Shown: in pieces, positions 18,728 to 37,965 of the stretch
Layout of the letters: every line of letters starts with the position of its first letter
How positions within the stretch are numbered: position 1 is the first letter of the stretch
Source of the DNA: Bacteroidota bacterium
GTDB taxonomy: Bacteria; Bacteroidota; Bacteroidia; Bacteroidales; JAIPAH01
Assembly (NCBI GenBank): GCA_051747665.1
Contig: JBNJGK010000002.1
Span: forward strand, 2,267 to 49,201
Direction of reading: 5' to 3'
DNA length: 46,935 nucleotides
The notes under the pieces: generated by a model
What the model saw: the letters and a program-made list of their open reading frames with translations, nothing else
Databases searched by the model: none
What the model was told of the DNA's origin: nothing
Position numbers and translations under genes: made by a program

Positions 18728-18730
18728 ACG

Positions 18731-19210: not shown

Positions 19211-19269
19211 TGTGATAAACTGAATTATATCGTCAGTATATTCAAAAACAGGTTTTTAATAATCAACAA

Positions 19270-21603: not shown

Positions 21604-22960
21604 AATCACTATAAAGAATGGCTATGTCGCGCTGCCGGGTGAAAAAGAGCCACTAAAGATCGATATTGTAGTAGAAGGCGAGCGCATTGCTGTTATAGGT
21701 AAAAACCTGAACCGCGGTAAAATAATCGACGCTAAAAACCTGTTGGTAATGCCTGGAGGCATCGACCCACATGTCCACTTTAACGATCCCGGATATACTG
21801 AACGTGAAGATTTTCTGCATGGCACTTCTGCAGCCGCTGCGGGGGGTATCACAACCATCATCGATATGCCCTGCACCTCCATCCCGCCTGTCAATACGCT
21901 TGAAAACCTTCACACGAAAAACCAACAAATTCAAAATAAAGCCATTGTAGACTATGGCCTTTATGGAGGTGTTTGCGCCCAAACCTATCATGAATCGCTC
22001 GAAAAGCACATGAAAGAGCTTTCCGCGAGTGTGATGGGTTTTAAAGTCTATTTCCTTTCGGGAATGGATAGTTTCCATAGTCTGAATGCATATCAGTTTG
22101 AGCAGGTTCTGAAAAAAGCAAAATCCCTCAACAAAACAGTGCTTCTGCACGCCGAAGACCCGGATTACGTCAATCCCGCCACCGCCGCAGAGAAAACCGC
22201 AAATGACACCTGGGAAGCTTATTACCGGTCAAGACCCGAAATGGCTGAAATCCTGGCTGTGAAAAAAGCAGTTCAAATAGCAAACTCTGCCGGCGCCAGC
22301 CTGCACATTGTGCACATCGGCAGCGCAGAAGCCGTTTTAGACATCCCCAAGAATTCAAAAATCAGCGGAGAAACCTGCCCGCACTATCTTGCTTTTTCTT
22401 ATGAGGATTTTGAAAAGCAGGGTAGCAGCCTGAAAACAGCCCCCGTTGTAAAAGCCCCGGGAAACGCCAATTTGCTTTGGAACTTCTTATCAACAGGTCG
22501 CCTGGATTTTGTTGCCACAGACCATGCCCCTGCCCCTGCCCAGGCCAAAAACCGCGGCTCTGTATGGAATGATTATGCCGGCATTCCGGGCATTGAAACG
22601 TACTTTCCTTACCTGTTTTCTGAAGGATACATGAAAAGCCAAATTTCTTTGGAAACGCTGCTTAGAATCACCTCAGGAAACGCTGCCCGGCGCTACAATT
22701 TCTTTCACCGCAAAGGCTCCATATCTGTGGGAAAAGAAGGTGATTTTGTGCTTATCAATCCCGATAAGGAACAGACGGTTAAGGGGCAAGATTTCTTTTC
22801 AAAAGGAAAAATAACGCCTTTTGAAGGCATGAAGCTCAAAGGAAAAATTGATAAAACCATTCTGCGGGGGAAAGTCGTATATGATACTGAGCAAGGCATT
22901 ACGACAGAACCCGGATATGGAAAATGGATAAAACCTAAACACAAAAACTATGGCAAATAA
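21593..22960 (+). CDS. Cyclic amidohydrolase, allantoinase (AllB)-like, of the dihydropyrimidinase/hydantoinase superfamily
   Basis: MPGGIDPHVHFNDPG, AAAGGITTIIDMP, GFKVY, VLLHAED, LHIVHIGS, ETCPHYL and VATDHAP. By recall it is collinear with E. coli AllB along its whole length. Confidence 0.85.
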   Translation: MQNKITIKNGYVALPGEKEPLKIDIVVEGERIAVIGKNLNRGKIIDAKNLLVMPGGIDPHVHFNDPGYTEREDFLHGTSAAAAGGITTIIDMPCTSIPPVNTLENLHTKNQQIQNKAIVDYGLYGGVCAQTYHESLEKHMKELSASVMGFKVYFLSGMDSFHSLNAYQFEQVLKKAKSLNKTVLLHAEDPDYVNPATAAEKTANDTWEAYYRSRPEMAEILAVKKAVQIANSAGASLHIVHIGSAEAVLDIPKNSKISGETCPHYLAFSYEDFEKQGSSLKTAPVVKAPGNANLLWNFLSTGRLDFVATDHAPAPAQAKNRGSVWNDYAGIPGIETYFPYLFSEGYMKSQISLETLLRITSGNAARRYNFFHRKGSISVGKEGDFVLINPDKEQTVKGQDFFSKGKITPFEGMKLKGKIDKTILRGKVVYDTEQGITTEPGYGKWIKPKHKNYGK

Positions 22961-24233
22961 ATACATCATCAAAAACGCAATCATCACAGACGGCATTTCG
23001 CGCCTTATGGAAAACGGCGCCATCAGGGTGGATGATGGTAAAATTGCCATCTTAGACCCTGAAAACAGCCTCCGTGATGAAAATGCCGAAGTCATTGACG
23101 CAGGAGGCAGAATAGTGATTCCCGGTCTTGCAAACCCGCATCACCACCTTTATTCCCGCTTTGCGGTGGGATTATCGCCGCTGGGACCGGCTGATAAACT
23201 ATCCGAAATCCTGAACCACTTATGGTGGCCGCTCGACCGGGCACTGGATGAAGAAACGGTTTATTATTCGGCCTTATCGGCAATCATGGACTCTATTAAA
23301 CATGGCGTTACTACTGTTTTTGATCATCATGCATCCAACTCATTCGTGAAAGGAAGTTTAAACACAATTGAAAAGGCCTTTCAGGAAGCAGGCATCAAAG
23401 GTGTGTTGGCCTACGAAGTATCTGACCGCGAAGGAAAAGACATTTTCAGAGAACAAGTGGAGGAAAATCTAGACTTTTATAAAAAAACCCAAAACAATCC
23501 TGATTTAAAAGGCATGATGGGATTGCATGCCAATTTTACACTTAGCCGTGAATCGCTGCAATTCCTTCGCAAAGTGATGCCTGACGGTATGGGCATTCAT
23601 ACACACTGCGGCGAGGGCAAAGAAGATTTTGATTTCTGTATTGAAGATGGCTTTGCAGGTCCGGTGGATAGGCTAAATGCTTTCGGACTTGTTGACGAAG
23701 CTTCCTTTTTGATTCACTGCATACATCTGTCTGAAAAGGATTTCCGCATCATCAACGAAAAAAATCCTGTAGTGGTTTCCAACCCTGAATCCAATGCCAA
23801 CAACGGGGTAGGCATGATGAATACAGAAAAAATCAGGAATTATGTTTTAGGCACTGATGGTATGTCAGGGAATATCATTGGCAGCCATCGCTCTCATTTT
23901 CTGAGAAGAAACGGAAACGTAGAAAATCCGTCAGGAAAACTATTCCGAAACACCAACCAGCTTGTTCAGTCTGTTTTTCCAGACTGCGGAGGACTGGAAC
24001 CTGGAAAAAGAGCCGATATAGCCATCCTGGATTATATTCCTGAAACACCCGTTAACCTGAACAATTTGTTTTTCCATTTAATTATGGGATTCGGCGCACA
24101 GCAAACCTGGATGACGATGGCGAACGGCAAAATCTTATTTAAAGAAGGAAAAATACAACACCTTGATGAAGCAGCGCTGAAAGCCGATTTCCAGAAAGCA
24201 GCAAAAAAATTACACCGGAGGTTTTATGAATGA
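22950..24233 (+). CDS. ssnA: SsnA-family aminohydrolase
   Basis: PGLANPHHHLYS and LWWPLDRALDEETVYYSALSAIMDSIKHGVTTVFDHHAS. The second block is near-identical in layout to E. coli SsnA LWWRLDRALDEESLYYSGL...DHHAS. LGTDGMSGN is also present. Confidence 0.85.
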   Translation: MANKYIIKNAIITDGISRLMENGAIRVDDGKIAILDPENSLRDENAEVIDAGGRIVIPGLANPHHHLYSRFAVGLSPLGPADKLSEILNHLWWPLDRALDEETVYYSALSAIMDSIKHGVTTVFDHHASNSFVKGSLNTIEKAFQEAGIKGVLAYEVSDREGKDIFREQVEENLDFYKKTQNNPDLKGMMGLHANFTLSRESLQFLRKVMPDGMGIHTHCGEGKEDFDFCIEDGFAGPVDRLNAFGLVDEASFLIHCIHLSEKDFRIINEKNPVVVSNPESNANNGVGMMNTEKIRNYVLGTDGMSGNIIGSHRSHFLRRNGNVENPSGKLFRNTNQLVQSVFPDCGGLEPGKRADIAILDYIPETPVNLNNLFFHLIMGFGAQQTWMTMANGKILFKEGKIQHLDEAALKADFQKAAKKLHRRFYE

Positions 24234-27200
24234 TGAATTTGTTTTAATACCATGGCGAAAATTATTTGAGATGACGATGCAGGGTGTGGACGAAAAGTCT
24301 GTTTTTGATATCCCGGAAAACCTGTTTTATCATCCCGCAAAGGAAAACCCATTAAGAACAAGCATGTTTGACCAGCCTATTGAAAACCCGGTCGGGATTT
24401 CTGCAGGCCCACATTCCCAGCTTGCACAAAACATTGTAGCTGCCTGGCTGTGCGGAGCACGTTACATTGAGCTCAAAACGGTTCAAACCGATGACGAACT
24501 GGATATTCCCCGTCCATGTATCGACATGCCATTTGAAGGCTATAACTGTGAGTTTTCGCAGGAACTAAAAATTCAACAATCATTTGACCAGTACTTAAAC
24601 GCATGGATTCTCATTCATATACTTAAGGATAAACTTGGATGGAAAGAAGATATCGGCACGATTTTTAACATGAGCATTGGCTACGACCTGAAAGGCATTA
24701 AGCAAAAAAACGTAAGCTGGTTTTTACAAAAAATGCGCGATTGCAGCGCTGAAAAAGAAGAAAAACTAAATGCTGTTGCCGACTTGTATCCTTCAGTAAA
24801 ATCACTGAATATCCCTGATTGTATCTCCGATAACGTCACGCTTTCTACGATGCACGGCTGTCCTCCTGATGAAATTCAACAAATCGGGGAATATCTTTTG
24901 CAGGAACAAAAACTGCATACCTATATCAAATTCAACCCTACTTTGCTGGGCGCAAAGAAAATCCGGGAAATTCTAAAGCATTACAATTATCAAGCAATTG
25001 TCCCTGACGAAGCCTTTGAGCATGATATCTCCTATGAAGATGCCGTTAGCGTGATTCAGTCGCTGCAAAAAACCGCGCAAAATGAAAACCTTCATTTTGG
25101 CCTGAAGCTCACAAACACCCTCGAAACCCGCAACCACAAAGATGTTTTTGAAGAAGAGTCTATGTTTATGAGTGGCAAAGCGCTGCATCCTATAAGCATT
25201 AATGTGGCACGAAAACTAAGAAACGAAAACGCATTGGCCGAAATCCCGGTATCTTTTTCCGGAGGCGTAGATGCCTTTAATATTGCTGAAACGCTGGCTT
25301 GCGGTTTCCGGCCGCTTACAGTAAGCAGCGACTTGCTTCGGCCCGGTGGCTATGGAAAGCTCAGCCAGTATATTGAACTGCTCCAGGAAGAGCTGCAAAA
25401 CAGAGGTGCCGGAGATCTGAACATGTATGCAACGAAAAAAGCAAAAGAAAACGATGCTGAAAAAGCGGCCCTTCAAAACCTCAACGAGTATGCTGACAAG
25501 GTTTTAGACCACAGCAGATATCACGCTGAAACGCCCAGCATTCATCTCGACAGGCCATTAAACGCCTTTGACTGCATCCAGGCGCCCTGCGAAAGCACCT
25601 GCCCGTCAGGACAGCAAGTGCCGGGATACCTCTATCACACAGCCCGCGGCGAATACAATAAAGCCTTTGAAGTAGTCATGCACGACAATCCGTTTCCTTC
25701 AGTATCAGGTATGATTTGCGACCATGAATGCCAAACACGATGCACTCGCGTTTTGTATGATGATCCTTTACTTATCAGGGAAATCAAGCGCTTTGTAGCT
25801 GAAAAAGGCCGCAATGGTACTACTGAAAAAGAAAAAAGCCATCCTGTCAGTACCGCCATTATTGGTGGAGGTCCTTCTGGACTTAGCTGCGCCTATTTTC
25901 TGACAAAAGCGGGAATTCATACTGAAATTTTTGAAGCTGCAAAAGAACCCGGAGGTATGGTAGCTAAAACCATTCCGGCTTTCCGGCTCTCAGAAAACGC
26001 ATTGCGAGAGGATATCCAGCGAATTCAGGATTTAGGAGTCCGGTTTCACTTTGGTGAAAAAATTGATAAGGCAAAATACCGTCAGCTTAAACAGGAGTTT
26101 GATTATGTTTTCATTGCAGTAGGGGCTCCGCAATCAAAAAAGTTAAACACTAAAGGAGCGGAAGAAGTACAGCAAGGAATCTACAATCCTTTGGAGCTGC
26201 TGGCGGATATCAAAACCGGCAAAAACCCTCACTCCGGTAAAAACATCATTGTGCTTGGCGGCGGTAATGTGGCTATGGACGTAGCCCGCACCCTTAAGCG
26301 TCTGGCCGGGACTGACGGGAATGTATCCCTGGTTTACCGACGAACACAGCAGGAAATGCCGGCAGAGGCTGAAGAGCTTGCCGAAGCCAGAGAAGAAGGA
26401 ATTGATTGGATAGAACTGGCTAATCCGGTTAAAGTGATTTCAAAAAACGGCGCCCTCAAAGCTGTTCAGTTTCAAAAAATGAAAATAAAGGGAACAGACC
26501 AAAACGGGCGGCCTAAACCGGTGCCTGACGGAGATAACGTGTTTATGATGAACTGCGATATGCTCGTTCCTGCATTTGGTCAGGAAGTAGAACCGGAGTT
26601 CCGGAAACTACTGGAACAAGAGAAAGCTTCTGTGAAGGAAAACAAAAAAGTTTTTGTTGGAGGAGATGCAAAAAGAGGAGCTTCCACGCTGATCAAAGCG
26701 ATTGCCGACGGAAAAAATGTTGCCCGGACTATCCTGCAACAAGAAGAAATCAATGAAAAACCAATCTTCAGGAATCAGTCTGAAAAACAAGTAACACTCC
26801 CGGAATTACAATACCGCAAAGCCCGGGTAAAAAAGGGCATCCCGGTAAGGAAACAACCACCGGCAGAGCGGCTGGATTTTGGCCTGGTTATTCCGGTAAT
26901 GAAGGAAGCAGAAGCACGGCAGGAAGCCGACCGATGCATGTATTGCGATGAGCTGTGCAACATTTGTGTGGATGTTTGTCCGAACCGCGCCAACCATGGC
27001 TACCAGGTAAAACCTTTTACGATGGAAATACCGGCAGCAAAAACGATTGACGGAAAAACACAGGCCTACACATCCGGGACATTTAAGCTGGAACAATTAA
27101 ACCAGGTTCTGAATATCAAAGATTTCTGCAATGAATGCGGCAACTGCGAAACATTCTGCCCTTCAAACGGAGCTCCCTTCCGCGACAAGCCGCAGGTGCA

Positions 27201-27483
27201 TCTGTCAGAAAAAAGCTTTGCCGCCGCTAGTGAAGGGTTCTGCTTTAAAAACGGAAAATTAGTGATGAAAACCGAACACGGCATCAAAACCCTGCAAAAA
27301 AACAAAACTTCTTTTGTTTTTGAATCCGCAGCAGCAGAAGCAGAGTTTGATGCATATTCTTTTAAACCGGAACAAATAATACTCAAAAAAGCCGGTGAAA
27401 CCGATTTTTCAGAAGCCATCATGATGTGGGTATTGCATGATGAAGTAAAGAAACTCAGCAAAACACAAAATGTAAAACAATAA
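24226..27483 (+). CDS. ygfK: YgfK-family Fe-S/flavin oxidoreductase ('putative selenate reductase subunit YgfK')
   Basis: 1085 aa. N-terminal DHOD/DPD-like barrel, Cys clusters CIQAPCESTCP and CDHECQTRC, dinucleotide folds IIGGGPSGLSCAYFL and IIVLGGGNVAMDVART, and C-terminal CMYCDELCNICVDVCP and CNECGNCETFCP. Confidence 0.85.
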   Translation: MNDEFVLIPWRKLFEMTMQGVDEKSVFDIPENLFYHPAKENPLRTSMFDQPIENPVGISAGPHSQLAQNIVAAWLCGARYIELKTVQTDDELDIPRPCIDMPFEGYNCEFSQELKIQQSFDQYLNAWILIHILKDKLGWKEDIGTIFNMSIGYDLKGIKQKNVSWFLQKMRDCSAEKEEKLNAVADLYPSVKSLNIPDCISDNVTLSTMHGCPPDEIQQIGEYLLQEQKLHTYIKFNPTLLGAKKIREILKHYNYQAIVPDEAFEHDISYEDAVSVIQSLQKTAQNENLHFGLKLTNTLETRNHKDVFEEESMFMSGKALHPISINVARKLRNENALAEIPVSFSGGVDAFNIAETLACGFRPLTVSSDLLRPGGYGKLSQYIELLQEELQNRGAGDLNMYATKKAKENDAEKAALQNLNEYADKVLDHSRYHAETPSIHLDRPLNAFDCIQAPCESTCPSGQQVPGYLYHTARGEYNKAFEVVMHDNPFPSVSGMICDHECQTRCTRVLYDDPLLIREIKRFVAEKGRNGTTEKEKSHPVSTAIIGGGPSGLSCAYFLTKAGIHTEIFEAAKEPGGMVAKTIPAFRLSENALREDIQRIQDLGVRFHFGEKIDKAKYRQLKQEFDYVFIAVGAPQSKKLNTKGAEEVQQGIYNPLELLADIKTGKNPHSGKNIIVLGGGNVAMDVARTLKRLAGTDGNVSLVYRRTQQEMPAEAEELAEAREEGIDWIELANPVKVISKNGALKAVQFQKMKIKGTDQNGRPKPVPDGDNVFMMNCDMLVPAFGQEVEPEFRKLLEQEKASVKENKKVFVGGDAKRGASTLIKAIADGKNVARTILQQEEINEKPIFRNQSEKQVTLPELQYRKARVKKGIPVRKQPPAERLDFGLVIPVMKEAEARQEADRCMYCDELCNICVDVCPNRANHGYQVKPFTMEIPAAKTIDGKTQAYTSGTFKLEQLNQVLNIKDFCNECGNCETFCPSNGAPFRDKPQVHLSEKSFAAASEGFCFKNGKLVMKTEHGIKTLQKNKTSFVFESAAAEAEFDAYSFKPEQIILKKAGETDFSEAIMMWVLHDEVKKLSKTQNVKQ

Positions 27484-27498
27484 AAACAAGATAAAACC

Positions 27499-28692
27499 AT
27501 GCATAAAGAAATCTTACAAAAAACAGAACAATACGCTTCTTTCACCGCCGAGTGCTTATCTGAAATGGTTAAAATACCCTCACTCAGCGGCGAAGAAAAA
27601 GAAGTCATGGAGAAAGTAAGCGAGCTTCTTGACCGCGCCGGCATAAAAGAACACTGGACCGACGGCCTGGGCAACGTGATTGCTAAGGTGGGAAGTGGCC
27701 CCAGGATTCTGGCTGTTGATGCGCACATAGATACCGTAGATACCGGCGATGTGGACCAATGGGATTTTGATCCCTTTTCAGGCGAAATCAAAGACGGTTT
27801 TGTGCATGGCCGCGGCACGGTTGACCAGGAAGGCGGTGCAGCCTCTATGATTACCGCTGCGAGGATTCTCCAGGAACTCAATTACAATGGTGGCTGGACA
27901 GTCTATTTTACTTTTACCGTGATGGAGGAAGACTGCGACGGACTATGCTGGCTTTACCTGATAGAGAAAGAAAACCTGAAACCTGATTATTGCGTCATAA
28001 CCGAGCCTACCAACCTGAATATTTATCGCGGACACCGCGGCAGAATGGAAATGGATGTCTATTTCAAAGGACTCTCAGCGCATGCCTCTGCTCCTGAACG
28101 AGGTGAAAATACCATTTACAGCGCCGCCCGTTTCGCTACACAGCTACAACAGCTTAATGAAAACCTCAAAACGGATGAATTGCTGGGCAAAGGAACGCTG
28201 GCGCCTACGGTATTCCAGACCGATTCTCCCTCGCTTTGCGCCATTCCCGATAAGGCATCCATGCATATCGACCGGCGCCTGACATGGGGTGAGACTAAAG
28301 ACTCCGCCGTGAAGGAAGTTGAAAACCTGCTGGGAGATGATGCCCGCGTAGAAGTTCCGCTCTACGACAAACCCAGCTACAAAGGAACGGTATTTAAGCA
28401 GGAAAAATATTTCCCTACATGGAAAATAGAAGAAAATCATCCCTTAATCCAATCGGGTGTAAGAAATTTCAAAAACCTTTTCGGCAAGCAACCGCTGGTA
28501 GATAAGTGGACGTTTTCCACCAATGCAGTGGCCGTATGTGGGAGATATGAAATTCCTTGCCTGGGATTTGGCCCGGGAAATGAAGTAATGGCACATGCCC
28601 CCAACGAAAAAACACCGGTAGAACACCTCGATAAAGCAGCCGCTTTTTACGCCATGCTGCCATATACGCTGGATGACAAACTACAGAGCTAA
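27499..28692 (+). CDS. ygeY: YgeY-family M20 metallohydrolase
   Basis: By recall it is collinear with E. coli YgeY. Shared blocks are DAHIDTV, WDFDPF, GRGTVDQEGG, EEDCDGLCW, YRGHRGRME, SAPERGEN, IDRRLTWGET, YFPTWKIEE and VDKWTFSTNAV...GFGPG...AHAPNEK. Confidence 0.88.
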   Translation: MHKEILQKTEQYASFTAECLSEMVKIPSLSGEEKEVMEKVSELLDRAGIKEHWTDGLGNVIAKVGSGPRILAVDAHIDTVDTGDVDQWDFDPFSGEIKDGFVHGRGTVDQEGGAASMITAARILQELNYNGGWTVYFTFTVMEEDCDGLCWLYLIEKENLKPDYCVITEPTNLNIYRGHRGRMEMDVYFKGLSAHASAPERGENTIYSAARFATQLQQLNENLKTDELLGKGTLAPTVFQTDSPSLCAIPDKASMHIDRRLTWGETKDSAVKEVENLLGDDARVEVPLYDKPSYKGTVFKQEKYFPTWKIEENHPLIQSGVRNFKNLFGKQPLVDKWTFSTNAVAVCGRYEIPCLGFGPGNEVMAHAPNEKTPVEHLDKAAAFYAMLPYTLDDKLQS

Positions 28693-28718: not shown

Positions 28719-29711
28719 ATGAACTTAAAAGGAAAAGACCTTATCACATTTCAGGACTGGACAAAAGAAGAAATTAATTACCTTCTGAAAGTCACATCCG
28801 ATTTGAAAAAACGCATAAAACAGGGTGAAATCATTGAAGACCTGAAGCATAAAACACTGTTCATGATTTTCTTTGAACAGTCTACCCGCACCCGGAATTC
28901 TATGGAAGCCGCCATGACGCAGTTGGGCGGACATGCACATGATTTGACCAAAGACAAAATGCAGATTTCGCATGGCGAAACACCAAAAGATACGGGCAAC
29001 GTACTGGCGCGTATGGGCGAAGCCATAGCTATCCGGAACTGTTTCCATGAACTCGGCAATCAATATATCCGTGATATCGCAAAATATGCTGATGTGCCGA
29101 TGATATCCATGCAGGATGATATCTACCATCCGCTCCAGGTTATTGCCGACTTCCTGACCATCAAAGAGCACTTTCAGCAACCCGAAAAGCTTAAAGTCAG
29201 CATTTTGTGGACCTATGCCACTTCTCATGCCAAGCCACTTTCCGTACCACAGTCGCAGGTGTTGTTTTTCCCGCGATATGGAATGGACGTAACCGTTGGT
29301 ATGCCTGAAGAATTTCCTTTGCAGGATGATATCATGAAACAAGCCCAAAAGAATGCAGAAGAAACAGGCGCCGAACTTAACGTTACACACAGCAAAGAAG
29401 AAGCAGTTAGGGACGCCGACATCGTAATCCCCAAAAACTGGGGCGGATTCGGATATTTTGATAAATGGGAAGACACCGAAAAAAACAAAGCGATTATGAA
29501 ATCCAATTTAGAGAAACATCCGGACTGGATTTTAGACAGAAAGCTTTATGAGCTAGCCAGGAAAGATGCGAAAATAATGCATGCCCTTCCTGCCGACCGC
29601 GGCAAGGAAGTTACAGATGAAATTCTGGACTCACCCAACTCTATCATTTATGATGAAGCGGAAAACCGCCTGCACACCGCGCGCGGCCTTTTACGTGAGC
29701 TTATGAAATAA
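28719..29711 (+). CDS. ygeW: YgeW-family (knotted) carbamoyltransferase
   Basis: STRTRNS carbamoyl-phosphate motif, QISHGETPKDT, HAKPLSVPQS, RYGMDVTVGMPEEF, DADIVIPKNW and MHALPADRG. These parallel the E. coli YgeW blocks. At 330 aa it is shorter than the ~396-aa E. coli protein. Confidence 0.85.
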   Translation: MNLKGKDLITFQDWTKEEINYLLKVTSDLKKRIKQGEIIEDLKHKTLFMIFFEQSTRTRNSMEAAMTQLGGHAHDLTKDKMQISHGETPKDTGNVLARMGEAIAIRNCFHELGNQYIRDIAKYADVPMISMQDDIYHPLQVIADFLTIKEHFQQPEKLKVSILWTYATSHAKPLSVPQSQVLFFPRYGMDVTVGMPEEFPLQDDIMKQAQKNAEETGAELNVTHSKEEAVRDADIVIPKNWGGFGYFDKWEDTEKNKAIMKSNLEKHPDWILDRKLYELARKDAKIMHALPADRGKEVTDEILDSPNSIIYDEAENRLHTARGLLRELMK

Positions 29712-29719
29712 AAACGATT

Positions 29720-30901
29720 ATGAATTATTATTACAAATGCAGCGAGTGTGGTAAAACGTATCCGATAACACCGGACAGGATGCTGTGCGAAGACTGCAGC
29801 AGCAAGCAAAAATCCGGCCGTCCGCTCCGCGGCATCCTTGAGGTAGCAATGGAAGGTCAGCTCGCCGATTGCACCTCCGTTTATGCTGTTTTACCGATAG
29901 AAAAAAAGTGGTTTCCGCAGATTCCGGTTGGCAACACTCCGCTCTGGTCACCTAAAAAGCTGCAACAAAAGCACGGCTTTCCAAACCTGTTTATCAAGGA
30001 TGACACCCGGAATTTAACCGGTTCTTATAAAGACAGAGCCTCATGGCTGGTCGCCGCCTCTGCGCTTAAGTGGGGCATCAGGCATGTTACGGTTGCTTCT
30101 ACAGGAAACGCGGCCTCTTCAATGGCCGGCATCGGAGCTGCGGCAGGACTCAGGGTAACCATTTATGTGCCGGGTTCCATTCCAAAAGCTAAGCTTGTAC
30201 AGTCGCTACAGTACGGCGCTGAGGTGATTTCTGTAAACGGAAGCTATGACGACGCTTTCCGCATGGCAATGAAACCAGACTCATCAGAAAAAGTACTCAA
30301 CAGAAATACCGGCTATAACCCGCTTACGCTGGAAGGCAAAAAAACAGCTTCCTTTGAGCTATGCCACCAGATGACAAATACACCAGACTATATTTTTGTG
30401 CCTGCTGGCGATGCTGTCGTGCTTAGCGGCATGATTAAAGGGTTTAAAGACCTCCAAAAACTCGGCAAAATCGGCAGATTTCCAAAGTTCATCGCTGTGC
30501 AGGCCGAGGGAAGCAGCGCCCTGGCGAAAGCTATGGAACAAGGAGATTTTTCAGACCCAGTGAAATCAGAAACCATAGCTGATTCCATCCAGGTAGATGT
30601 TCCGGCATGTGGATATTATGCTTTGCGCGAATTGAAAGCGCACAGCGGCGACTGCATAACGGTTTCCGATAATGAAATCCGGCAAGCACAAATAGAATTA
30701 TCTTCAGAGGCGGGGCTTTTTGCAGAGCCCTCTGCGGCAGCTTCTTTGGCAGGCTTACTCAAGATGAAAGCAGATATTGAACCGGAGGCAAAAATCGTGT
30801 TGCTGGCTTCAGGAACGGGACTCAAAGACATCGACAACGCACAGCAGGCTGTGGAAAACGCAGGCAGAACCATAACACGAAAGGAGGTCTCGGATGATTG
30901 A
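29720..30901 (+). CDS. Threonine-synthase-like fold-type-II PLP enzyme with an N-terminal 4-Cys zinc ribbon
   Basis: CSECG...CEDC ribbon, VGNTPLW, PLP-lysine motif LTGSYKDRAS, ASTGNAASS, and a C-terminal LLASGTGLKD. It is collinear with short ThrC proteins but sits inside the purine operon. Confidence 0.8.
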   Translation: MNYYYKCSECGKTYPITPDRMLCEDCSSKQKSGRPLRGILEVAMEGQLADCTSVYAVLPIEKKWFPQIPVGNTPLWSPKKLQQKHGFPNLFIKDDTRNLTGSYKDRASWLVAASALKWGIRHVTVASTGNAASSMAGIGAAAGLRVTIYVPGSIPKAKLVQSLQYGAEVISVNGSYDDAFRMAMKPDSSEKVLNRNTGYNPLTLEGKKTASFELCHQMTNTPDYIFVPAGDAVVLSGMIKGFKDLQKLGKIGRFPKFIAVQAEGSSALAKAMEQGDFSDPVKSETIADSIQVDVPACGYYALRELKAHSGDCITVSDNEIRQAQIELSSEAGLFAEPSAAASLAGLLKMKADIEPEAKIVLLASGTGLKDIDNAQQAVENAGRTITRKEVSDD

Positions 30902-31460
30902 AGCCATAATTTTAGCAGCAGGGTATTCCTCGCGCACCAGCCGCTATAAAATGACTTTGCCTTTGGGCGAAAAAACCGTACTACAGCATACTGTAGAGTC
31001 GTTTTTAAAAGTTTGCAATAAAGTAATTGTGGTTTGCGGACATAACGCCCGGGATTGTAAAAAACTTTTTGCAAACCAAAAAGGAGTGATTGTTACCGTA
31101 AACCCGAATTTTTCCAAAGGCATGTTCAACTCTGTGCAGCACGGCGTTCGTCAGTTGCATTCGGATATATTTTTTGTGATTCCGGGCGATCAACCTATGG
31201 TTAAGCCCGAAACACTAACGAAGTTGCTTGCTGCCGATGGAGACATCATAAATCCGGCCTACCGGGGAAAAAAAGGACATCCGGTATTGTTCCGGGGCAA
31301 CAGCAAAAAAGGTATACTGGATATGCCGGAAAATGCGGTTTTGCGCGATTATATACACAGCCATCCATCCACGGTACTCGAAGTGGATGATGAGGGCGTC
31401 TTGCTGGATATCGATACCGATGAAGATTATGAAAACATGGCAACCCGTTTTGCTACATGA
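30894..31460 (+). CDS. mocA: Molybdenum cofactor cytidylyltransferase (MocA/YgfJ-like)
   Basis: AIILAAGYSSRTSRYKM nucleotide-binding loop, VIPGDQPMV and GHPVLF. It is 188 aa and overlaps both neighbouring genes. Confidence 0.75.
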   Translation: MIEAIILAAGYSSRTSRYKMTLPLGEKTVLQHTVESFLKVCNKVIVVCGHNARDCKKLFANQKGVIVTVNPNFSKGMFNSVQHGVRQLHSDIFFVIPGDQPMVKPETLTKLLAADGDIINPAYRGKKGHPVLFRGNSKKGILDMPENAVLRDYIHSHPSTVLEVDDEGVLLDIDTDEDYENMATRFAT

Positions 31461-33574
31461 TAAATAACAGGAAACAGTTTATGGAAAACAAAATCAGTAC
31501 TTCTATTCCCCGCTTTGACGCCAGTAAAAAACTATCCGGCGAAGCCGTTTACATCGGCGATATGGTTTTGGATGGAATGCTGCATGCACGCACCTTAAGA
31601 AGCGAAAAAGCCCATGCCCGCATCATCAGTATTGAACTTCCCGAACTGCCTGAAGGATATTTTGCCATCACAAAAGAAGATGTTCCTAGAGAAAACCATA
31701 TGCAAAGTGTTGTTTCAGACCACCCGCTTTTTGCTGATAAAGAGGTTTTTTACATCGGACAGCCTCTTCTTCTTATGATAGGTCCTGACAAGGAAAAGAC
31801 AGCCTCGCTGGCTTCGCAAGTAAAGGTCAGGTATGAAGATTTACCTTCCATTACAAACATGGAAGAAGCCATCCGGAAAAACAAAACGCACGTCAGCTAC
31901 CAATATGACAAAGGAAATCCTGAAGGAGCTTTTCGCGAAAGCAAAAACATTATCTCTGAAACATTTTATACCGGAAGACCTGACCAGTTATACCTTGAGA
32001 CAAATGGCGTTATAGCCAAGTGGGAAAACGAGCGCATGACGGTTTATGGTTCCATGCAATGTCCCTTTTTTGTAAAAAATGCTGTGGCTGAAGCTACAGG
32101 CCTGGCTCCGGATCAGATTCGCGTTATACAAACGGTTACCGGAGGTGCGTTTGGAGGTAAAGAGGAATACCCTTCATTGCTGGCTGCACAGGCGGCAATT
32201 GCTTCTCTGAAAACCGGCAAACCTGTCCGGTTGATCTTAGACCGGAAAGAGGACCTGGAAGCCAGCACAAAACGTCATCCTGCCAAGATGAAATACCGTG
32301 CGGCCATTAATGCGAAGCAAGAGATTACAGCCATAGACATTGACATTAGTTTTGATGGCGGCGCTTTTGCTACTATCTCTCCGGTAGTACTTCAAAGAGG
32401 CATGTTTACGGCTACGGGCGTGTATAATTTTCCTCATATCAGGGTTAAAGGTCGCGTAGTTGATACTCACAAAGTTCCTTCCGGCGCTTTTCGCGGTTTT
32501 GGCGCACCGCAGGTACTGTTTGCCATGGAACAAATGATGCTTCGTATTAGTAACAGATTAAACCAGAATACGCTGAATTTTAAGAAAAAGCACCTTATAA
32601 AAACAGGAGACACCACAGCCACCGGCGGCAAAATGTGGTCGGATATCAAAATCAATGAAGTGATAGAGAAAATTACGGGGATGTCTGACTACAACCACAA
32701 AAAAGCTAAGCACGGAAAAAACCGCGGCATTGGTATTTCGTTGTTTTTACACGGTTGTGGTTTCACCGGACGTGGCGAAGTGGACATCAGTGGTGAAGTC
32801 ATCCTGAAAAAGAAAAATGAAAATATCAGCATCTACACTTCCAATGTAGAGATGGGTCAGGGCGCCTCCACAACGCTAAGAAAAATTGTGGCCCAGAGCC
32901 TGCAAATCCCTGAAGCAAAAGTCAGCTTTGAGCCTCAGGATACCGACCGGGTACCAAATTCCGGGCCTACTGTAGCTTCCAGAACGGCTATGATTATCGG
33001 CGGACTGGTGAAAAAAGCATGTAATCAGCTTCTTGAAAAATGGCATTTGCCTGATGTTGAGGTCAAAGAAGTTTACCAGCATCCCGGATATGTAAACTGG
33101 GATAACAAAACATTTCGGGGCGATGCTTACCCCGTCTACTCATGGGGCGCTAATGTGGCTGAAGTAGAAGCCGATCCGGTTACATGCGAAATAGACGTAA
33201 AAAAATTATGGGGTGTTTATGATATTGGCGTAGCGCTGGATGAGGACATCATCCGCGGACAGATGCAGGGCGGCATGATCCAGGGACTGGGATATGCCCT
33301 GATGGAAAAAATGGAACACCTGCAAGGAAAATTGCAACAGTTGAACTTAACGGATTATACCATTCCCACAACAATGGATACACCAGAAATGGAATGCGAT
33401 TTTGTAGAAAATCCATACGAATTTGGACCTTTCGGTGCTAAATGTGCCGGAGAGCTGCCGCTGAATGGCATAGCTCCTGCTTTAGCTGAAGCAGTGGAGC
33501 AGGCGCTTGGCATCAAAGTAAGCCAAATTCCTTTGACTCCTGAATACTTAAAAGAAAGGCAACATGAAGATTGA
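31457..33574 (+). CDS. Molybdopterin-binding large subunit with xanthine-dehydrogenase-type active-site motifs
   Basis: TGGAFGGKEE, GAFRGFGAPQ and GAKCAGELPLNGIAPALAEAV. In bovine XOR the equivalent motifs GGGFGGKE, FRGFGGPQ and VGEPP carry Glu802, Arg880 and Glu1261. Confidence 0.9.
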   Translation: MINNRKQFMENKISTSIPRFDASKKLSGEAVYIGDMVLDGMLHARTLRSEKAHARIISIELPELPEGYFAITKEDVPRENHMQSVVSDHPLFADKEVFYIGQPLLLMIGPDKEKTASLASQVKVRYEDLPSITNMEEAIRKNKTHVSYQYDKGNPEGAFRESKNIISETFYTGRPDQLYLETNGVIAKWENERMTVYGSMQCPFFVKNAVAEATGLAPDQIRVIQTVTGGAFGGKEEYPSLLAAQAAIASLKTGKPVRLILDRKEDLEASTKRHPAKMKYRAAINAKQEITAIDIDISFDGGAFATISPVVLQRGMFTATGVYNFPHIRVKGRVVDTHKVPSGAFRGFGAPQVLFAMEQMMLRISNRLNQNTLNFKKKHLIKTGDTTATGGKMWSDIKINEVIEKITGMSDYNHKKAKHGKNRGIGISLFLHGCGFTGRGEVDISGEVILKKKNENISIYTSNVEMGQGASTTLRKIVAQSLQIPEAKVSFEPQDTDRVPNSGPTVASRTAMIIGGLVKKACNQLLEKWHLPDVEVKEVYQHPGYVNWDNKTFRGDAYPVYSWGANVAEVEADPVTCEIDVKKLWGVYDIGVALDEDIIRGQMQGGMIQGLGYALMEKMEHLQGKLQQLNLTDYTIPTTMDTPEMECDFVENPYEFGPFGAKCAGELPLNGIAPALAEAVEQALGIKVSQIPLTPEYLKERQHED

Positions 33575-34031
33575 ATTCAATTTAAACGGAAAAACTGAGG
33601 TGTTTGAAGGCCCGCCGGAGTCGCGCTTATTAGATGTGCTAAGGGATCACTTCGGGTTAAAAAGCCTGAAAGAAGGCTGCGGCGAAGGAGAATGTGGCGC
33701 CTGCACGGTGCTGCTTGATGGAAAAGCCGTGGCCTCATGTATTTTGCCTGCCGGAGCTGCTGCCGGCAGAAAGATAGAAACCCTGGAAGGCATTCGCAAC
33801 GGCAACAGCTACAACCTCATCAAGCAAGCATTCAGGGAGTCCGGCGCTGTACAATGCGGCTTTTGCACCCCCGGCATGGTCATGGCTGCCGAATCGCTGC
33901 TGCGCGAAAACCCAAACCCGGATAAAACAGACATCCGTCGCGCGCTGTCGGGAAACTTATGCCGCTGCACGGGATACAGCATGATATTAAACGGCGTGGA
34001 ACTAGCTGTAAAAAGACAGGAGGAAAAATGA
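33564..34031 (+). CDS. (2Fe-2S)-binding small subunit of the second molybdenum hydroxylase
   Basis: CGEGECGACTVLLDGKAVASC, QCGFCTPGM and CRCTGY. Confidence 0.92.
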   Translation: MKIEFNLNGKTEVFEGPPESRLLDVLRDHFGLKSLKEGCGEGECGACTVLLDGKAVASCILPAGAAAGRKIETLEGIRNGNSYNLIKQAFRESGAVQCGFCTPGMVMAAESLLRENPNPDKTDIRRALSGNLCRCTGYSMILNGVELAVKRQEEK

Positions 34032-34891
34032 AAACAGCCTATCATCCCGAATCTCTGTCTGAAGCTCTCGAAATAAGAGCAAACGAAAGAGTTAAGCCTA
34101 TAGCCGGAGGCACTGACCTGATGGTGCAGCATCGCAGAGAAGGAGGCATTGCACCAGGATTTAGCGAACCGCTGCTGTTTCTCTATCAGTTGCCGGAATT
34201 AAAAAAAATTACCGCAGATAAAAATATACTAACCATCGGATCAGGCGTTCTCTTAAGCCAACTGACTAATGATACACAAGTGCCGAACCTGCTCAGAGAA
34301 ACAGCGCAACAGATGGCAGCGGTTACCACACGAAACGTTGCCACAATCGGAGGAAACGTTTGCAATGCATCACCTGCTGCTGATATTTTGCCCTGTTTGT
34401 ATCTATTAAATGCAGAACTGGTTTTACAAAGCCTTCGCAATTACAGAATCCTTCCAATACACGAGTTTATAACCGGTCCGGGTACAACGCTGCTTCGGGA
34501 AGATGAACTTCTGGTTGAAATCCGGTTTCCTTTAGATAATTTCGAGGTGGAGAAATACAGAAAAATAGGTACACGCAAAGCAATGGCTTTGTCTAAAATA
34601 TCCTTTGCCGCTGGCGCAAACTTTAAGGATAGCAAGCTAAGCGATATCAGGATGGCGCTGGGAGCTGTGGCTCCGACGGTAGTCCGTTCCTTATCCGCCG
34701 AAAGGCTACTCATCAACAAAACTAAACAGGAAATTGAGAAACAGCTTCCCGAAGTAATGAAAGCGTATGAAAAAGCCATAAACCCAATAGACGACGCGCG
34801 CAGCAATAAAAAATACCGAAAGCAAGTCAGCCTGGAATTAATACAGGATTTTATTGAAAATCAGATTCTAAACCATAAAAAGATATCATAA
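34028..34891 (+). CDS. FAD-binding subunit of the second molybdenum hydroxylase (CoxM/XdhB-like)
   Basis: PIAGGTDLMV and ATIGGNVCNASPAAD. Start is set at ATG 34028 (ATGA overlap with the previous stop) rather than the track's 33959. Confidence 0.88.
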   Translation: MKTAYHPESLSEALEIRANERVKPIAGGTDLMVQHRREGGIAPGFSEPLLFLYQLPELKKITADKNILTIGSGVLLSQLTNDTQVPNLLRETAQQMAAVTTRNVATIGGNVCNASPAADILPCLYLLNAELVLQSLRNYRILPIHEFITGPGTTLLREDELLVEIRFPLDNFEVEKYRKIGTRKAMALSKISFAAGANFKDSKLSDIRMALGAVAPTVVRSLSAERLLINKTKQEIEKQLPEVMKAYEKAINPIDDARSNKKYRKQVSLELIQDFIENQILNHKKIS

Positions 34892-34892
34892 G

Positions 34893-35693
34893 ATGGTTTC
34901 AAAACCGTCAATAAAAGACACGAAAACACAAACAATGAAAATCCTTGAAAAACTTGTTCAGAATGTTCCGGAGATTCCGGTAAATGAGGTGATTGTCGGC
35001 GTATTTACTACGCTGGTAAGAGCAGGTAACTTATATGGAGTTTCCAGTACATTGCGGGGCGAAACACCACATCAAGCCCCCGGGCGGGACAAACCCCTGT
35101 CAGAAATGAACCTACGGGAATTAGCGGAACTGATTCATTCTGAAGAACTCTTACAAGCCTCTGTTGGTCTGGCCGCAATTAATGCGGCAAATGCAACGGA
35201 TAAACACTTCACATCTGTAAAAGCTCAGGAAATCATTCGCCAAAAAGGAAAAGGTAAAGTCGTTGCCGCAGTCGGCCATTTCCCGTTTCTGGAAAAACTC
35301 ACTGAACCTTCGCGGTTGATGATTTTTGAAAAACAGCCTTTGAATGGGGATTTTCATGAAAAGGATATCCGTCGACTATTGCCTGAGGCTGATGTCGTGG
35401 CTATAACAGGCACCACGTTTATCAATCATACTTTTGGAGAGGTGATGAAACATATCAGGCCCGACGCATTCAAAATCGTTTTAGGCCCCTCTACCCCACT
35501 GTCACCTGTTCTTTTCAACTTTGGCATTGATGCGGTTTGCGGAACCCGGGTAACAGATTTTGAGGTGATGAGGCAATGCGTGCTGGAGGCAACGCCTGTA
35601 AGGCAAACTCAGGGAAAAGACTTCGTTTGCCGGATGCGTAAAGATTATGAAAATCAGCAAAAATCAGTTATAGAAATTTCAGAAAGCAACTAA
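34893..35693 (+). CDS. DUF4213/DUF364 ('putative heavy-metal chelation') domain protein
   Basis: The N-terminal VIVGVFTTLVRAGNLYGVSSTL is DUF4213-like. The Rossmann-like part has VVAAVGHFPF...LLPEADVVAITGTTFINHT...IVLGPSTPLSPVLF..GIDAVCGTRV, which is DUF364-like. Assignment is by recall. Confidence 0.72.
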   Translation: MVSKPSIKDTKTQTMKILEKLVQNVPEIPVNEVIVGVFTTLVRAGNLYGVSSTLRGETPHQAPGRDKPLSEMNLRELAELIHSEELLQASVGLAAINAANATDKHFTSVKAQEIIRQKGKGKVVAAVGHFPFLEKLTEPSRLMIFEKQPLNGDFHEKDIRRLLPEADVVAITGTTFINHTFGEVMKHIRPDAFKIVLGPSTPLSPVLFNFGIDAVCGTRVTDFEVMRQCVLEATPVRQTQGKDFVCRMRKDYENQQKSVIEISESN

Positions 35694-35696
35694 AAT

Positions 35697-36506
35697 ATGA
35701 GGGATATTTATAAAAATATTTGGGAAATCACACAAAGCGGTAAACCGGGCGTACTCGTAACGGTCGTTGAAAAAGAAGGTGAAGGCCCTGCCCTGGCCGG
35801 AAATAAAATGCTGGTGTATGAGGATGGCAGCACGGCGGGAACCGTTGGCGGAGGCAACCTGGAATTTTTGGCTGCAAAAAAAGCCAGGAAAATCCTTCAA
35901 ACAGGAAAAAATGCGCTTGAAAGCTTTAATTTGTCTGATGACAAAACAGAAGGCACACCAACCGGCATGGCCTGTGGGGGAAAAGCCACGCTCTTCTTTG
36001 AGTTTCTGGGTCAAACCAGCCGCGTATACCTCTTTGGGGCCGGACATATCGGCAAAGCCCTTTTTGAAATCCTTACAAAAATGGAAGTGGCGGTAACGTT
36101 AGTGGATGACCGCGCTGAGATGATCGAGGAAATAAAAACTCCCGGAGAAAAGCATCATGCTGGTTTTGTGGAATTCATTGAAGAAACGGATTTTCATGCC
36201 ACTCCGCTGTTTGTTTTGGCAACGTATAAGCATCAGCACGACAGCTACATCCTGAATAAAATTTACGAAAAACAAATCCAGACTCCCTACATTGGCATTA
36301 TCGCCTCCAAAAAAACGCGTAAAATGCTGATTCAAAGCCTGCAAGAGACAAATGGTGAGGATACGGACCTGACGCCGGTTTACTCTCCCGCGGGCTTGGA
36401 CATCGGCGGAACCGACCATCCGTGGGAAATTGCCCTGTCAGTTGCAGCGGAAATACAAACCCTTCGATACAACAAAAATGCAAATCATTTAAAAGACAAA
36501 AAATAA
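35697..36506 (+). CDS. XdhC/CoxF-family molybdenum hydroxylase maturation factor
   Basis: The N-terminal VLVTVVEKEGEGPALAGNKMLV..DGSTAGTVGGGNLE matches the XdhC_CoxI domain. Rossmann motif VYLFGAGHIGKAL. Confidence 0.85.
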   Translation: MRDIYKNIWEITQSGKPGVLVTVVEKEGEGPALAGNKMLVYEDGSTAGTVGGGNLEFLAAKKARKILQTGKNALESFNLSDDKTEGTPTGMACGGKATLFFEFLGQTSRVYLFGAGHIGKALFEILTKMEVAVTLVDDRAEMIEEIKTPGEKHHAGFVEFIEETDFHATPLFVLATYKHQHDSYILNKIYEKQIQTPYIGIIASKKTRKMLIQSLQETNGEDTDLTPVYSPAGLDIGGTDHPWEIALSVAAEIQTLRYNKNANHLKDKK

Positions 36507-36516
36507 CATACAATTC

Positions 36517-37965
36517 ATGATAGACCTGACAATCAACGAAAATCAAAGAAAGCAAAATGCTGAAATCTGCCACGAGCGCAATATCATTGTGCCCACTTTC
36601 GCAGAAATGAAAAACCCGGATCTGATTCCGGATCATATCAAAAAGGAATTAAATAATGTTGGCTTGTGGGACATTGACCCGCGAAACCTGTTCCGCATAA
36701 CCTGGAAAAATGAGCCTGCACATCATGGCGGAGGCTATTCAGGAGTGAACTATATGGAGCTGCCTCCGGAACTCACCGGAGTGAATGCCCGTATCATTGC
36801 GCTTGTAGGAAAATGGTTTCCAACAGGCGCCCACAAAGTAGGCGCTACGTTTGGCTGCCTGGCGCCACGGCTGATAACAGGTCAGTTTAACCCGAAAAAA
36901 CACAAAGCCGTATGGCCCTCTACAGGAAATTATTGCCGGGGCGGCGCTTACGATGCCGCGCTGCTGGCATGTGAATCCGTTGCCATATTACCTGAAGGAA
37001 TGTCAAAAGAGCGTTTCGAGTGGCTGGCCAATGTAGCCGGAGAAGTCATAGCCACACCCGGCTGCGAAAGCAATGTAAAAGAAATCTTTGACAAATGCTG
37101 GGAATTAAAAAAGACTCGCAGTGACGTAATGATTTTCAATCAGTTTGATGAATTCGGAAACCACTTATGGCATTATGACGTGACCGGAAATGCGATGCTG
37201 GAAGTGCTGCAAAAAGAATTAGGAGATGACCACCACTATTCCGGTGTAGTATTAACTTCTGGATCCTCAGGAACAATGGGTTGCGGCGACTTTCTGAAGG
37301 AAAAATATCCGGCATCAAAAATAGCCGTGGGTGAAGCGCTACAGTGCCCTACCCTACTGCAAAACGGTTTTGGCGGACATCGCATCGAAGGCATCGGCGA
37401 TAAACACGTTCCGTGGATTCATAACGTTCGAAACACAGATATGGTGGTTGCTGTTGACGATGATTCTACTATGCGCACCGTTCGCTTGTTTAACGAAGCG
37501 CAAGGAAAAGAATACCTCGCCAGGCAAGGGGTTCATCAAAAACTAATTGATAACCTGGATTTATTGGGTATTTCCTCTGTTGGCAACCTGCTTTCAGCTA
37601 TCAAATATGCCAAGTATTATGAATTGACGGAAAAGGATGTTGTGATGACGGTCTTTACCGATTCAATGGAGCTGTATGATTCTAGAATGCAGGAGATGGA
37701 AAAGGAGCACGGCCCTTACAATACGATAGATGCCGCTAAGGATTTTGATCACCTTCAAAACCTGACCATCGATCATACGCTGGAGCTGACGCATTATGAG
37801 AAGAAACGCATCCACAACCTGAAATACTACACCTGGATAGAGCAGCAGGGAAGACAACTCGAAGAGCTGAACCGGCAATGGTACGACCATTATGAATACT
37901 GGGACGAAATCCACCGCCTGGTTCCGAAAATTGACCGGCTAATAAAGGAATTCAATGCATTGTAA
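36517..37965 (+). CDS. Long (482 aa) fold-type-II PLP-dependent enzyme with a helical C-terminal extension
   Basis: Candidate PLP lysine in FPTGAHKVGATFG, STGNYCRGGAY, and the glycine loop TSGSSGTMG. The last ~130 aa are a charged helical tail. No closer family could be recognised. Confidence 0.7.
   Translation: MIDLTINENQRKQNAEICHERNIIVPTFAEMKNPDLIPDHIKKELNNVGLWDIDPRNLFRITWKNEPAHHGGGYSGVNYMELPPELTGVNARIIALVGKWFPTGAHKVGATFGCLAPRLITGQFNPKKHKAVWPSTGNYCRGGAYDAALLACESVAILPEGMSKERFEWLANVAGEVIATPGCESNVKEIFDKCWELKKTRSDVMIFNQFDEFGNHLWHYDVTGNAMLEVLQKELGDDHHYSGVVLTSGSSGTMGCGDFLKEKYPASKIAVGEALQCPTLLQNGFGGHRIEGIGDKHVPWIHNVRNTDMVVAVDDDSTMRTVRLFNEAQGKEYLARQGVHQKLIDNLDLLGISSVGNLLSAIKYAKYYELTEKDVVMTVFTDSMELYDSRMQEMEKEHGPYNTIDAAKDFDHLQNLTIDHTLELTHYEKKRIHNLKYYTWIEQQGRQLEELNRQWYDHYEYWDEIHRLVPKIDRLIKEFNAL

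Follow-up and report, generated by a model that had tools for sequence, protein, structure and literature searches.

The 46,935-nucleotide stretch analysed here (the window; NCBI GenBank assembly GCA_051747665.1, contig JBNJGK010000002.1, positions 2,267 to 49,201 of the forward strand) comes from a Bacteroidota bacterium and holds a complete reductive urate (2,8-dioxopurine) cluster, all of it on the + strand, from 17882 to 39429. Within this cluster, at 29720..30901 (+), lies the gene of a fold-type-II pyridoxal 5'-phosphate (PLP) enzyme that resembles threonine synthase (ThrC) and occupies the place that ygeX holds in E. coli. Two 2025 preprints reconstituted the urate pathway with E. coli and Clostridium enzymes in the order XdhD, YgfK, SsnA, HyuA, YgeW, YgeY and YgeX, and the last of these was established experimentally as the step from 2,3-diaminopropionate (DAP) to pyruvate. 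We consider it moderately probable that the ThrC-like protein is a recruited ThrC paralogue that serves as the terminal PLP enzyme in a YgeX-less variant of this anaerobic pathway.

The protein (P0001, 393 aa) matches PF00291 (PALP) with 239 bits against a gathering score of 35, over residues 70-365. A Cys4 ribbon lies near its N-terminus (C7, C10, C23 and C26, within CSEC at 7-10 and CEDC at 23-26), the PLP lysine, K104, sits in LTGSYKDRAS at 99-108, and further motifs read STGNA at 127-131, RNTGYNPLT at 195-203 and PAGDAVV at 228-234 (GDAVV at 230-234). The stop codon of an upstream carbamoyltransferase gene (29709-29711) is followed after 8 nt by the ATG of the ThrC-like gene at 29720, whose 3' end overlaps the start of mocA by 8 nt (ATGATTGA). 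The reading frame, the CxxC...CxxC ribbon, the lysine motif, PAGDAVV in place of the ThrC motif and the 8-nt gap are all as the first-pass annotation had read them, and the order that it gave for E. coli, ygeW-ygeX-ygeY, is correct for strain K-12. The order it gave for the window, ygeY-ygeW-[ThrC-like]-mocA, stands as to positions but not as to the name ygeW, since the product of that gene fails the YgeW models and is OTC-like (OTC, ornithine carbamoyltransferase). An AlphaFold model of P0001 (pLDDT, predicted local distance difference test, 94.3) confirms the fold: its top 21 matches in the Protein Data Bank (PDB) are all ThrC structures (best: 6CGQ, 2ZSJ, 2D1F and 1V7C). Behind the ThrCs in the ranking come beta-eliminating enzymes (threonine deaminases, serine dehydratases and serine racemase); the top 50 PDB matches do not include YgeX.

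Alignment with the solved ThrCs of A. aeolicus (2ZSJ), B. subtilis (6CGQ) and T. thermophilus (1UIM) runs over residues 58-379 of P0001, which upholds the collinearity claimed earlier, and places K104 on K61 of the T. thermophilus enzyme. Around the active site, the two part ways. Where the solved enzymes read STGNT, N-SVNPxR and GNAGN (within P[VI]GNAGN), P0001 reads STGNA, NTGYNPLT and GDAVV (within PAGDAVV, 228-234). In T. thermophilus numbering, T88 becomes Ala131, S155 becomes Gly198 with one residue inserted (Gly or Ala in the family), R160 becomes Thr203, N188 becomes Asp231, and G190 and N191 become Val233 and Val234 (Val/Val or Val/Ile in the family). A131, R195, T203 and D231 are invariant among 121 P0001 homologues of 54-99% identity, Arg195 being new relative to ThrC; with all 121 agreeing, the motif changes are not due to chance. 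D231 and R195 are also kept in about 120 more distant representatives, and three divergent canonical ThrC lineages retain T, R and N at the T88, R160 and N188 positions. P0001 falls below the cut-off of every ThrC model: TIGR00260 gives 165.0 against 167.1 (165.4 in the whole-genome scan, also under), NF006050 gives 207 against 303, NF004170 gives 193 against 421, and all remaining models are likewise missed.

The phylogenetic comparison with ThrC that had been proposed places P0001 in a separate clade. The tree used is a 64-row IQ-TREE, an earlier 154-row FastTree having been dropped as noisy because of mis-trimmed canonical open reading frames (ORFs). The cluster-linked GDGVI type forms a clade of 19 rows (Shimodaira-Hasegawa-like approximate likelihood ratio test, SH-aLRT, 98) nested in that larger Asp231/Arg195/Thr203 clade of 28 rows (SH-aLRT 98), and canonical ThrCs lie outside it. 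A second cluster-linked type, RNSGTNPFL/GDGCT, groups apart on an unresolved backbone that neither establishes nor rules against a single origin of Asp231. This second type is found directly beside SsnA in other Bacteroidota families (L034, L035, L038, L041, L042, L044-L046 and L048), and it scores 220-237 bits with TIGR00260, over the ThrC cut-off, while lacking R160 and N188; annotation pipelines will therefore label it threonine synthase.

The genome around the cluster offers little for a threonine synthase to do. Searches of the assembly recovered no homoserine kinase gene (thrB; best TIGR00191 score 40 bits against 168), no homoserine dehydrogenase gene (hom; no match to PF00742) and, by profile or tblastn, no canonical thrC, which leaves the ThrC-like gene as the sole ThrC-family gene there. 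The assembly is 81% complete, so absences from this one genome are soft, but genus-wide and phylum-wide patterns are not, and within the genus none of 8 genomes (G000-G007; 78-95% complete) yielded a canonical thrC. The genus looks threonine-auxotrophic. The first-pass annotation had counted it against a new function if this protein proved to be the only ThrC of its genome; that is literally the case in this assembly, but with hom and thrB also not found, and thrC in none of the eight, there is no threonine pathway for the enzyme to serve. Four of the eight genus genomes lack both SsnA and the ThrC-like gene, which thus behaves like a component of an accessory catabolic island and unlike a core gene of biosynthesis. 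Judged by its sequence, the product of 29720-30901 is predicted not to be a working ThrC.

The first-pass annotation had seen no YgeX-like sequence in the window, and the absence extends to the whole assembly: TIGR03528 reaches no more than 26 bits, the cut-off being 532, and a tblastn search with the E. coli protein gave no match at E<=1e-5. To place this single genome in context, 401 genomes sampled evenly across the phylum were searched, with E<=1e-40 as the threshold for a YgeX-like match. SsnA occurs in 30 of the 401, and every one of these 30 also carries the ThrC-like gene, which is present in 32 genomes overall. In 24 of the 30 SsnA genomes the two genes lie no more than 25 kb apart on one contig. 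No YgeX-like match was found in 26 of the 30, and the remaining 4 have one either on a different contig or at a distance of 120 kb or more. Of 31 ThrC-like-positive genomes, 24 encode a canonical thrC (253-325 bits) as a separate gene elsewhere. The carriers span 25-26 genera and are related, so the counts overstate the number of independent cases.

The same pattern appears across phyla. A survey over GTDB with SsnA as anchor returned 80 loci, within a 10-kb radius of which the ThrC-like gene was found in 16, YgeX in 4 (all Clostridia) and both in none. The ThrC-like loci include Bacteroidales, Neomarinimicrobiota, WOR-3, Chloroflexia, Desulfuromonas and Spirochaetia. For 22 of the genomes concerned, the search was widened to the whole genome and to a second fold-type-II PLP enzyme of the operon, PALP482 (36517..37965). 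In the four Clostridia, YgeX was found in 4/4, the ThrC-like gene in 0/4 and PALP482 in 0/4, and in 18 other genomes YgeX was found in 1/18, the ThrC-like gene in 18/18 and PALP482 in 17/18. Taken with the lost ThrC residues, the 30/30 co-occurrence with SsnA, the mutually exclusive 16 and 4 loci and the separate thrC of most carriers, the idea that a recruited ThrC paralogue stands in YgeX's place is well supported. The non-orthologous replacement proposed in the first-pass annotation survives as the core idea, but it may not be a one-for-one swap, as PALP482, which that annotation did not mention, lies in the same operon. The replacement for YgeX may instead be a two-enzyme module of the ThrC-like protein and PALP482.

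The remainder of the operon would supply the other steps of the pathway. The cluster begins with a Mo hydroxylase set of FAD (flavin adenine dinucleotide) subunit, 2Fe-2S subunit and 777-aa Mo subunit (17882..21603, +), followed by a cyclic amidohydrolase of the allantoinase type in the HyuA slot (21593..22960, +; TIGR03178 366.6 against a cut-off of 357.85), which falls under the D-hydantoinase model TIGR02033 (266.7 against 393). An SsnA-type amidohydrolase for pyrimidine-ring opening (22950..24233, +) is 31% identical to E. coli SsnA and scores just under the cut-off of NF005540 (400.8 against 444). Next come a YgfK-type Fe-S flavoenzyme (24226..27483, +; TIGR03315 865.5 against 835.3), which by the pathway papers, both 2025 preprints, would be the 2,8-dioxopurine reductase, and a YgeY-family M20 hydrolase (27499..28692, +; NF009555 494.6 against 321), the ureido-group hydrolase of the pathway. 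A 330-aa OTC-like carbamoyltransferase in the YgeW slot (28719..29711, +; PF02729, PF00185) directly precedes the ThrC-like gene. Downstream lie a MocA-type molybdenum cofactor cytidylyltransferase (30894..31460, +; PF12804; TIGR03310 152 against a cut-off of 186), a second Mo hydroxylase set of 705-aa Mo subunit, 2Fe-2S subunit and FAD subunit (31457..34891, +), a DUF4213/DUF364 protein with an XdhC-type maturation factor (34893..36506, +), the 482-aa PALP482 (36517..37965, +; PF00291 49.7 bits) and an 8-oxoguanine-deaminase-type amidohydrolase (38011..39429, +; NF006055 590.1 against 532). The ThrC-like gene is thus co-located with SsnA, YgfK or, elsewhere, UacX, YgeY, a cyclic amidohydrolase and Mo hydroxylase. 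In four unrelated contigs (L006, L007, L011 and L012) the genes for YgeY, the OTC-like enzyme, the ThrC-like enzyme, MocA and the Mo subunit are syntenic with those of the window at 54-65% identity, and a fifth locus (L009) keeps YgeY, the OTC-like gene and the ThrC-like gene with UacX replacing YgfK.

Several features of these neighbours merit description in their own right. The two Mo hydroxylase sets have mirrored subunit orders (FAD, FeS, Mo and Mo, FeS, FAD), and their Mo subunits are only about 26% identical to each other; presumably one set makes 2,8-dioxopurine and the other brings in other purines. The ORFs at 33564-34031 and 33959-34891 overlap, and the FAD subunit probably begins further downstream than its ORF. 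The amidohydrolase at 38011..39429 is likely a feeder that converts 8-oxoguanine to urate, and homologues are neighbours of SsnA at many loci of Elusimicrobia (L108-L134) and at one YgeX-type locus of Clostridium (L126). At the ring-opening slot, E. coli has the D-specific HyuA and the window an allantoinase type, because of which the stereochemistry of the pathway here may differ from that in E. coli.

The carbamoyltransferase at 28719-29711 fails the cut-offs for YgeW, OTC, putrescine carbamoyltransferase (PTC) and N-acetylornithine carbamoyltransferase (AOTC). It reaches 179 bits against 453 and 168 against 500 on the two YgeW models, and its best scores, 252 bits with the OTC model and 243 with that for PTC, are also under the cut-offs. 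The protein is 33% identical to E. coli YgeW and carries STRTR at 55, HPLQ at 137 and HALP, not HCLP, at 288; DxxxSMG is absent. Its scores and motifs mark it as what appears to be a distinct OTC-like subfamily in YgeW's position, not a YgeW. By analogy with citrulline phosphorolysis, its target might be the ureido group in the side chain of beta-ureidoalanine. The OTC-like gene adjoins the ThrC-like gene in L006, L007, L009 and many SsnA-anchored loci, and in a Spirochaetia locus (L095) the ThrC-like gene is paired with a true YgeW type (65% identity to E. coli YgeW); the swap between YgeX and the ThrC-like enzyme is therefore independent of the type of carbamoyltransferase. A carbamate kinase gene is present elsewhere in this genome, on contig C184, beside another carbamoyltransferase-like gene. 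The two may form an arginine deiminase-type pair that is not part of the urate pathway, for which reason the kinase argues only faintly for ATP coupling. In other phyla, an Elusimicrobiota locus (L150:2592-4873) has a carbamate-kinase-like gene immediately before the ThrC-like gene, and two Neomarinimicrobiota loci (L070 and L073) have one near it, in L073 between two OTC-like genes just ahead of the ThrC-like gene.

By analogy with the E. coli and C. sporogenes pathway, urate would be converted to 2,3-diureidopropionate, from which one ureido group would be removed by phosphorolysis to give carbamoyl phosphate and the second by YgeY hydrolysis to give DAP. DAP, or possibly a mono-ureido precursor, would then bind PLP at K104 of the ThrC-like enzyme, the alpha proton would be removed and the beta-amino (or beta-ureido) group eliminated, and the released aminoacrylate would hydrolyse to pyruvate and ammonia. 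The assignment of DAP beta-elimination to the ThrC-like enzyme is modelled on the reaction of YgeX. The rebuilt pocket (Ala131, Gly/Ala plus insertion, Thr203 and Asp231) would suit a substrate whose beta/gamma substituent is cationic or neutral and no longer anionic, such as an ammonium or ureido group in place of phosphate. ThrC enzymes have been reported to deaminate threonine to 2-ketobutyrate (PMC12172450). Between the two PLP enzymes of the operon, the ThrC-like enzyme is favoured over PALP482 as the eliminating lyase with moderate confidence, because it holds the ygeX slot beside YgeY and the carbamoyltransferase, because its fold neighbours after ThrC are deaminases and those of PALP482 beta-replacement enzymes, and because it is found without PALP482 in two SsnA genomes, the converse being seen only in one 78%-complete metagenome-assembled genome (MAG). 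PALP482 probably acts in the same terminal stage, since it is co-inherited with the ThrC-like gene.

A number of observations weigh against this reading. Exclusion between the ThrC-like gene and YgeX is not absolute, as five carriers (G131, G202, G254, G366 and G437) have a YgeX-like gene elsewhere, and the ThrC-like gene is sometimes off-cluster, being paired in L015 with PALP482 and nothing else of the cluster, and lying 1.7 Mb from SsnA in G242. The T. thermophilus ThrC residues T88, S155, R160 and N188 are reported to be the ligands of the substrate phosphate (Omi 2003; Murakawa 2011), and the test made here was of their conservation only. The second catalytic base of YgeX, Asp120, is replaced in the ThrC-like protein by Thr128, a threonine being found in ThrC too. 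Because of this threonine, the enzyme may take only the L isomer, and D-DAP, expected from a D-hydantoinase route, is not obviously handled. With its allantoinase-type ring opener and its OTC-like transferase, this variant could, speculatively, proceed via L intermediates. PALP482 is present in 31/32 ThrC-like carriers of the phylum sample and in 17/18 genomes across phyla, and in 0/4 YgeX-type Clostridia; as it co-occurs as tightly as the ThrC-like gene, comparative genomics alone cannot tell which of the two replaces YgeX. Finally, in two Synergistota (L148:5693-17709, an Acetomicrobium MAG, and L149) the order is M20, M20, ThrC-like, serine hydroxymethyltransferase (SHMT), PALP482, TRAP (tripartite ATP-independent periplasmic) transporter genes (DctP, DctQ and DctM), YgeY and OTC-like; the position of the SHMT gene, flanked by those of the two PLP enzymes, is a hint of an exit through serine or glycine, not pyruvate.

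PALP482 combines a CysK/CBS-like core, with its lysine in TGAHK and an STGNY loop, with extensions of about 85 aa at the N-terminus and about 100 aa at the C-terminus. Its model (pLDDT 85.8) has a CysK/CBS/beta-cyanoalanine-synthase fold, and its best solved relatives are CBS and CysK. In public annotation, it is named only 'pyridoxal-phosphate dependent enzyme' or 'cysteine synthase'. Across several phyla, the protein keeps an identity of 70% or more; the best matches to it in three Clostridia are CysK-type proteins of about 310 aa with about 30% identity. A complex prediction for the ThrC-like enzyme and PALP482 scored 0.00, which is informative in neither direction.

Rather unlikely, and the most credible of the alternatives, is that PALP482 is the true replacement for YgeX and that the ThrC-like enzyme carries out another PLP step, such as replacement of the beta-amino or ureido group by water to give serine or racemisation of the C3 amino acid. 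Water addition at C-beta is native ThrC chemistry, and the SHMT gene between the two in Synergistota is in line with such a step. PALP482 has the same presence/absence pattern as the ThrC-like gene, being likewise missing from YgeX-type Clostridia, and is the more conserved of the two (54-61% against 38-51% across the phylum sample). SsnA often adjoins it (e.g. G158, G222, G242, G426 and G135), and in L015, from a genome of the same order, PALP482 and the ThrC-like gene form a stand-alone tandem. However, the fold neighbours of PALP482 (CysK, CBS and beta-cyanoalanine synthase) catalyse beta-replacement, whereas the next neighbours of the ThrC-like protein are deaminases, and the slot directly after YgeY and the carbamoyltransferase is taken by the ThrC-like gene, as it is by ygeX in E. 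coli. Two SsnA-positive genomes, G067 (100% complete) and G449, have the ThrC-like gene without PALP482, whereas the only SsnA-positive, YgeX-less genome without the ThrC-like gene is G002, the 78%-complete MAG.

We hold it unlikely that the two proteins form an obligate two-enzyme branch with chemistry other than that of YgeX, in which, for example, the ThrC-like enzyme would add water at C-beta, as its ancestor did, so that L-DAP or beta-ureidoalanine yields L-serine. The serine would pass to SHMT or to a beta-replacement step, and serine, glycine or cysteine, not pyruvate, would be the form in which the C3 unit of the purine leaves. Taken with the allantoinase-type opener and the OTC-like transferase, such a branch could make the whole an L-series pathway.

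A very improbable reading has the ThrC-like protein maturing or otherwise assisting the Mo hydroxylases, which may be selenium-dependent, for instance through PLP-based S/Se mobilisation. The 8-nt overlap with mocA and the Mo subunit gene that comes next, both here and in L006, L007, L011 and L012, would suit this, as would the XdhC and DUF364 maturation-type genes further down the operon. However, YgeX-type clusters have the same kind of hydroxylase and do without a ThrC-like gene, the neighbours in L009, L101, L148 and L150 are YgeY, M20 hydrolases, carbamoyltransferase or carbamate kinase and not MocA, and mutual exclusion with YgeX points to a catabolic role; the maturation role was rejected on these grounds. 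That the gene encodes a genuine, divergent threonine synthase that uses O-phosphohomoserine and sits in a purine operon by chance is scarcely credible and was likewise rejected: it is the only ThrC-family gene of the assembly, it is only 2 bits below the TIGR00260 cut-off and some cluster-linked relatives exceed that cut-off (170-237 bits) and are publicly named threonine synthase, but P0001 is under the cut-offs, R160, T88 and N188 are all replaced, hom and thrB were not found in this 81%-complete genome, 24/31 carriers also keep a canonical thrC, and the presence of the gene follows SsnA and not threonine prototrophy.

The reading that we prefer, with the ThrC-like enzyme as terminal lyase, describes a variant of a known pathway that is uncharacterised and mis-annotated as threonine synthase. 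In the literature searched, no paper names threonine synthase together with ssnA or ygfK, and neither pathway paper discusses a non-YgeX PLP enzyme. The neighbourhood analysis in one of them scored any PF00291 protein as YgeX, which would hide the ThrC-like variant. Reconstitution of the reductive urate pathway dates only from 2025, and work towards probiotics against gout is drawing on it. For bacteria other than Bacillota and Enterobacteria, the lineages sampled (Bacteroidota, Neomarinimicrobiota, WOR-3, Synergistota, Spirochaetota, Elusimicrobiota, Chloroflexota, Desulfuromonas and Holophagae) indicate that the last step would fall not to YgeX but to a ThrC-like enzyme with a second PLP enzyme. 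Urate degraders will be undercounted wherever YgeX serves as the marker of a survey, and automatic annotation will wrongly credit genomes carrying the ThrC-like gene with threonine synthesis. The family also offers a case of an anion-binding PLP pocket rebuilt for a new substrate.

Compared with known systems, the ThrC-like enzyme combines the operon place of one family with the structure of another. With YgeX/DpaL (EC 4.3.1.15) it shares the fold-type-II PLP class and the position beside YgeY and a carbamoyltransferase, and the reaction proposed for it, by analogy, is the one shown for YgeX, from DAP to pyruvate and 2 NH3. Similarity in sequence is at the superfamily level only (BLASTP 25% over 135 aa, E 2.5e-7), and P0001 scores 18.4 bits with TIGR03528 against a cut-off of 532.25. 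The catalytic pair of YgeX is Lys77 and Asp120 (PMC4000059); P0001 has the lysine (K104), but Thr128 precedes the G-N where YgeX reads Asp. P0001 also has a Zn ribbon that is not seen in the E. coli YgeX sequence, and YgeX-type genomes are without the second PLP enzyme that accompanies it. In structure, P0001 is closest to the short bacterial and archaeal ThrCs (2ZSJ, 6CGQ, 1UIM/1V7C and 2D1F; Foldseek E ~1e-29, template modelling (TM) score 0.84-0.88 on target), with which it shares 32-36% identity over about 320 residues, the PLP lysine motif and the S-T-G-N loop. The N-terminal Cys4 ribbon is also present in some canonical ThrCs (P0201 and P0237). P0001 differs from them in lying in a purine-catabolic operon of a genome in which neither hom nor thrB was found. 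Recruitment of a ThrC paralogue has a parallel in the cysteate synthase of Methanosarcinales, which Graham et al. in 2009 are said to have described as a ThrC paralogue with a changed substrate and reaction and the fold kept. Cysteate synthase uses the phosphorylated substrate O-phosphoserine in a beta-replacement and works in coenzyme M synthesis. Going by description only, the ThrC-like family described here differs from it in having lost the canonical ThrC residues and in its setting of purine catabolism.

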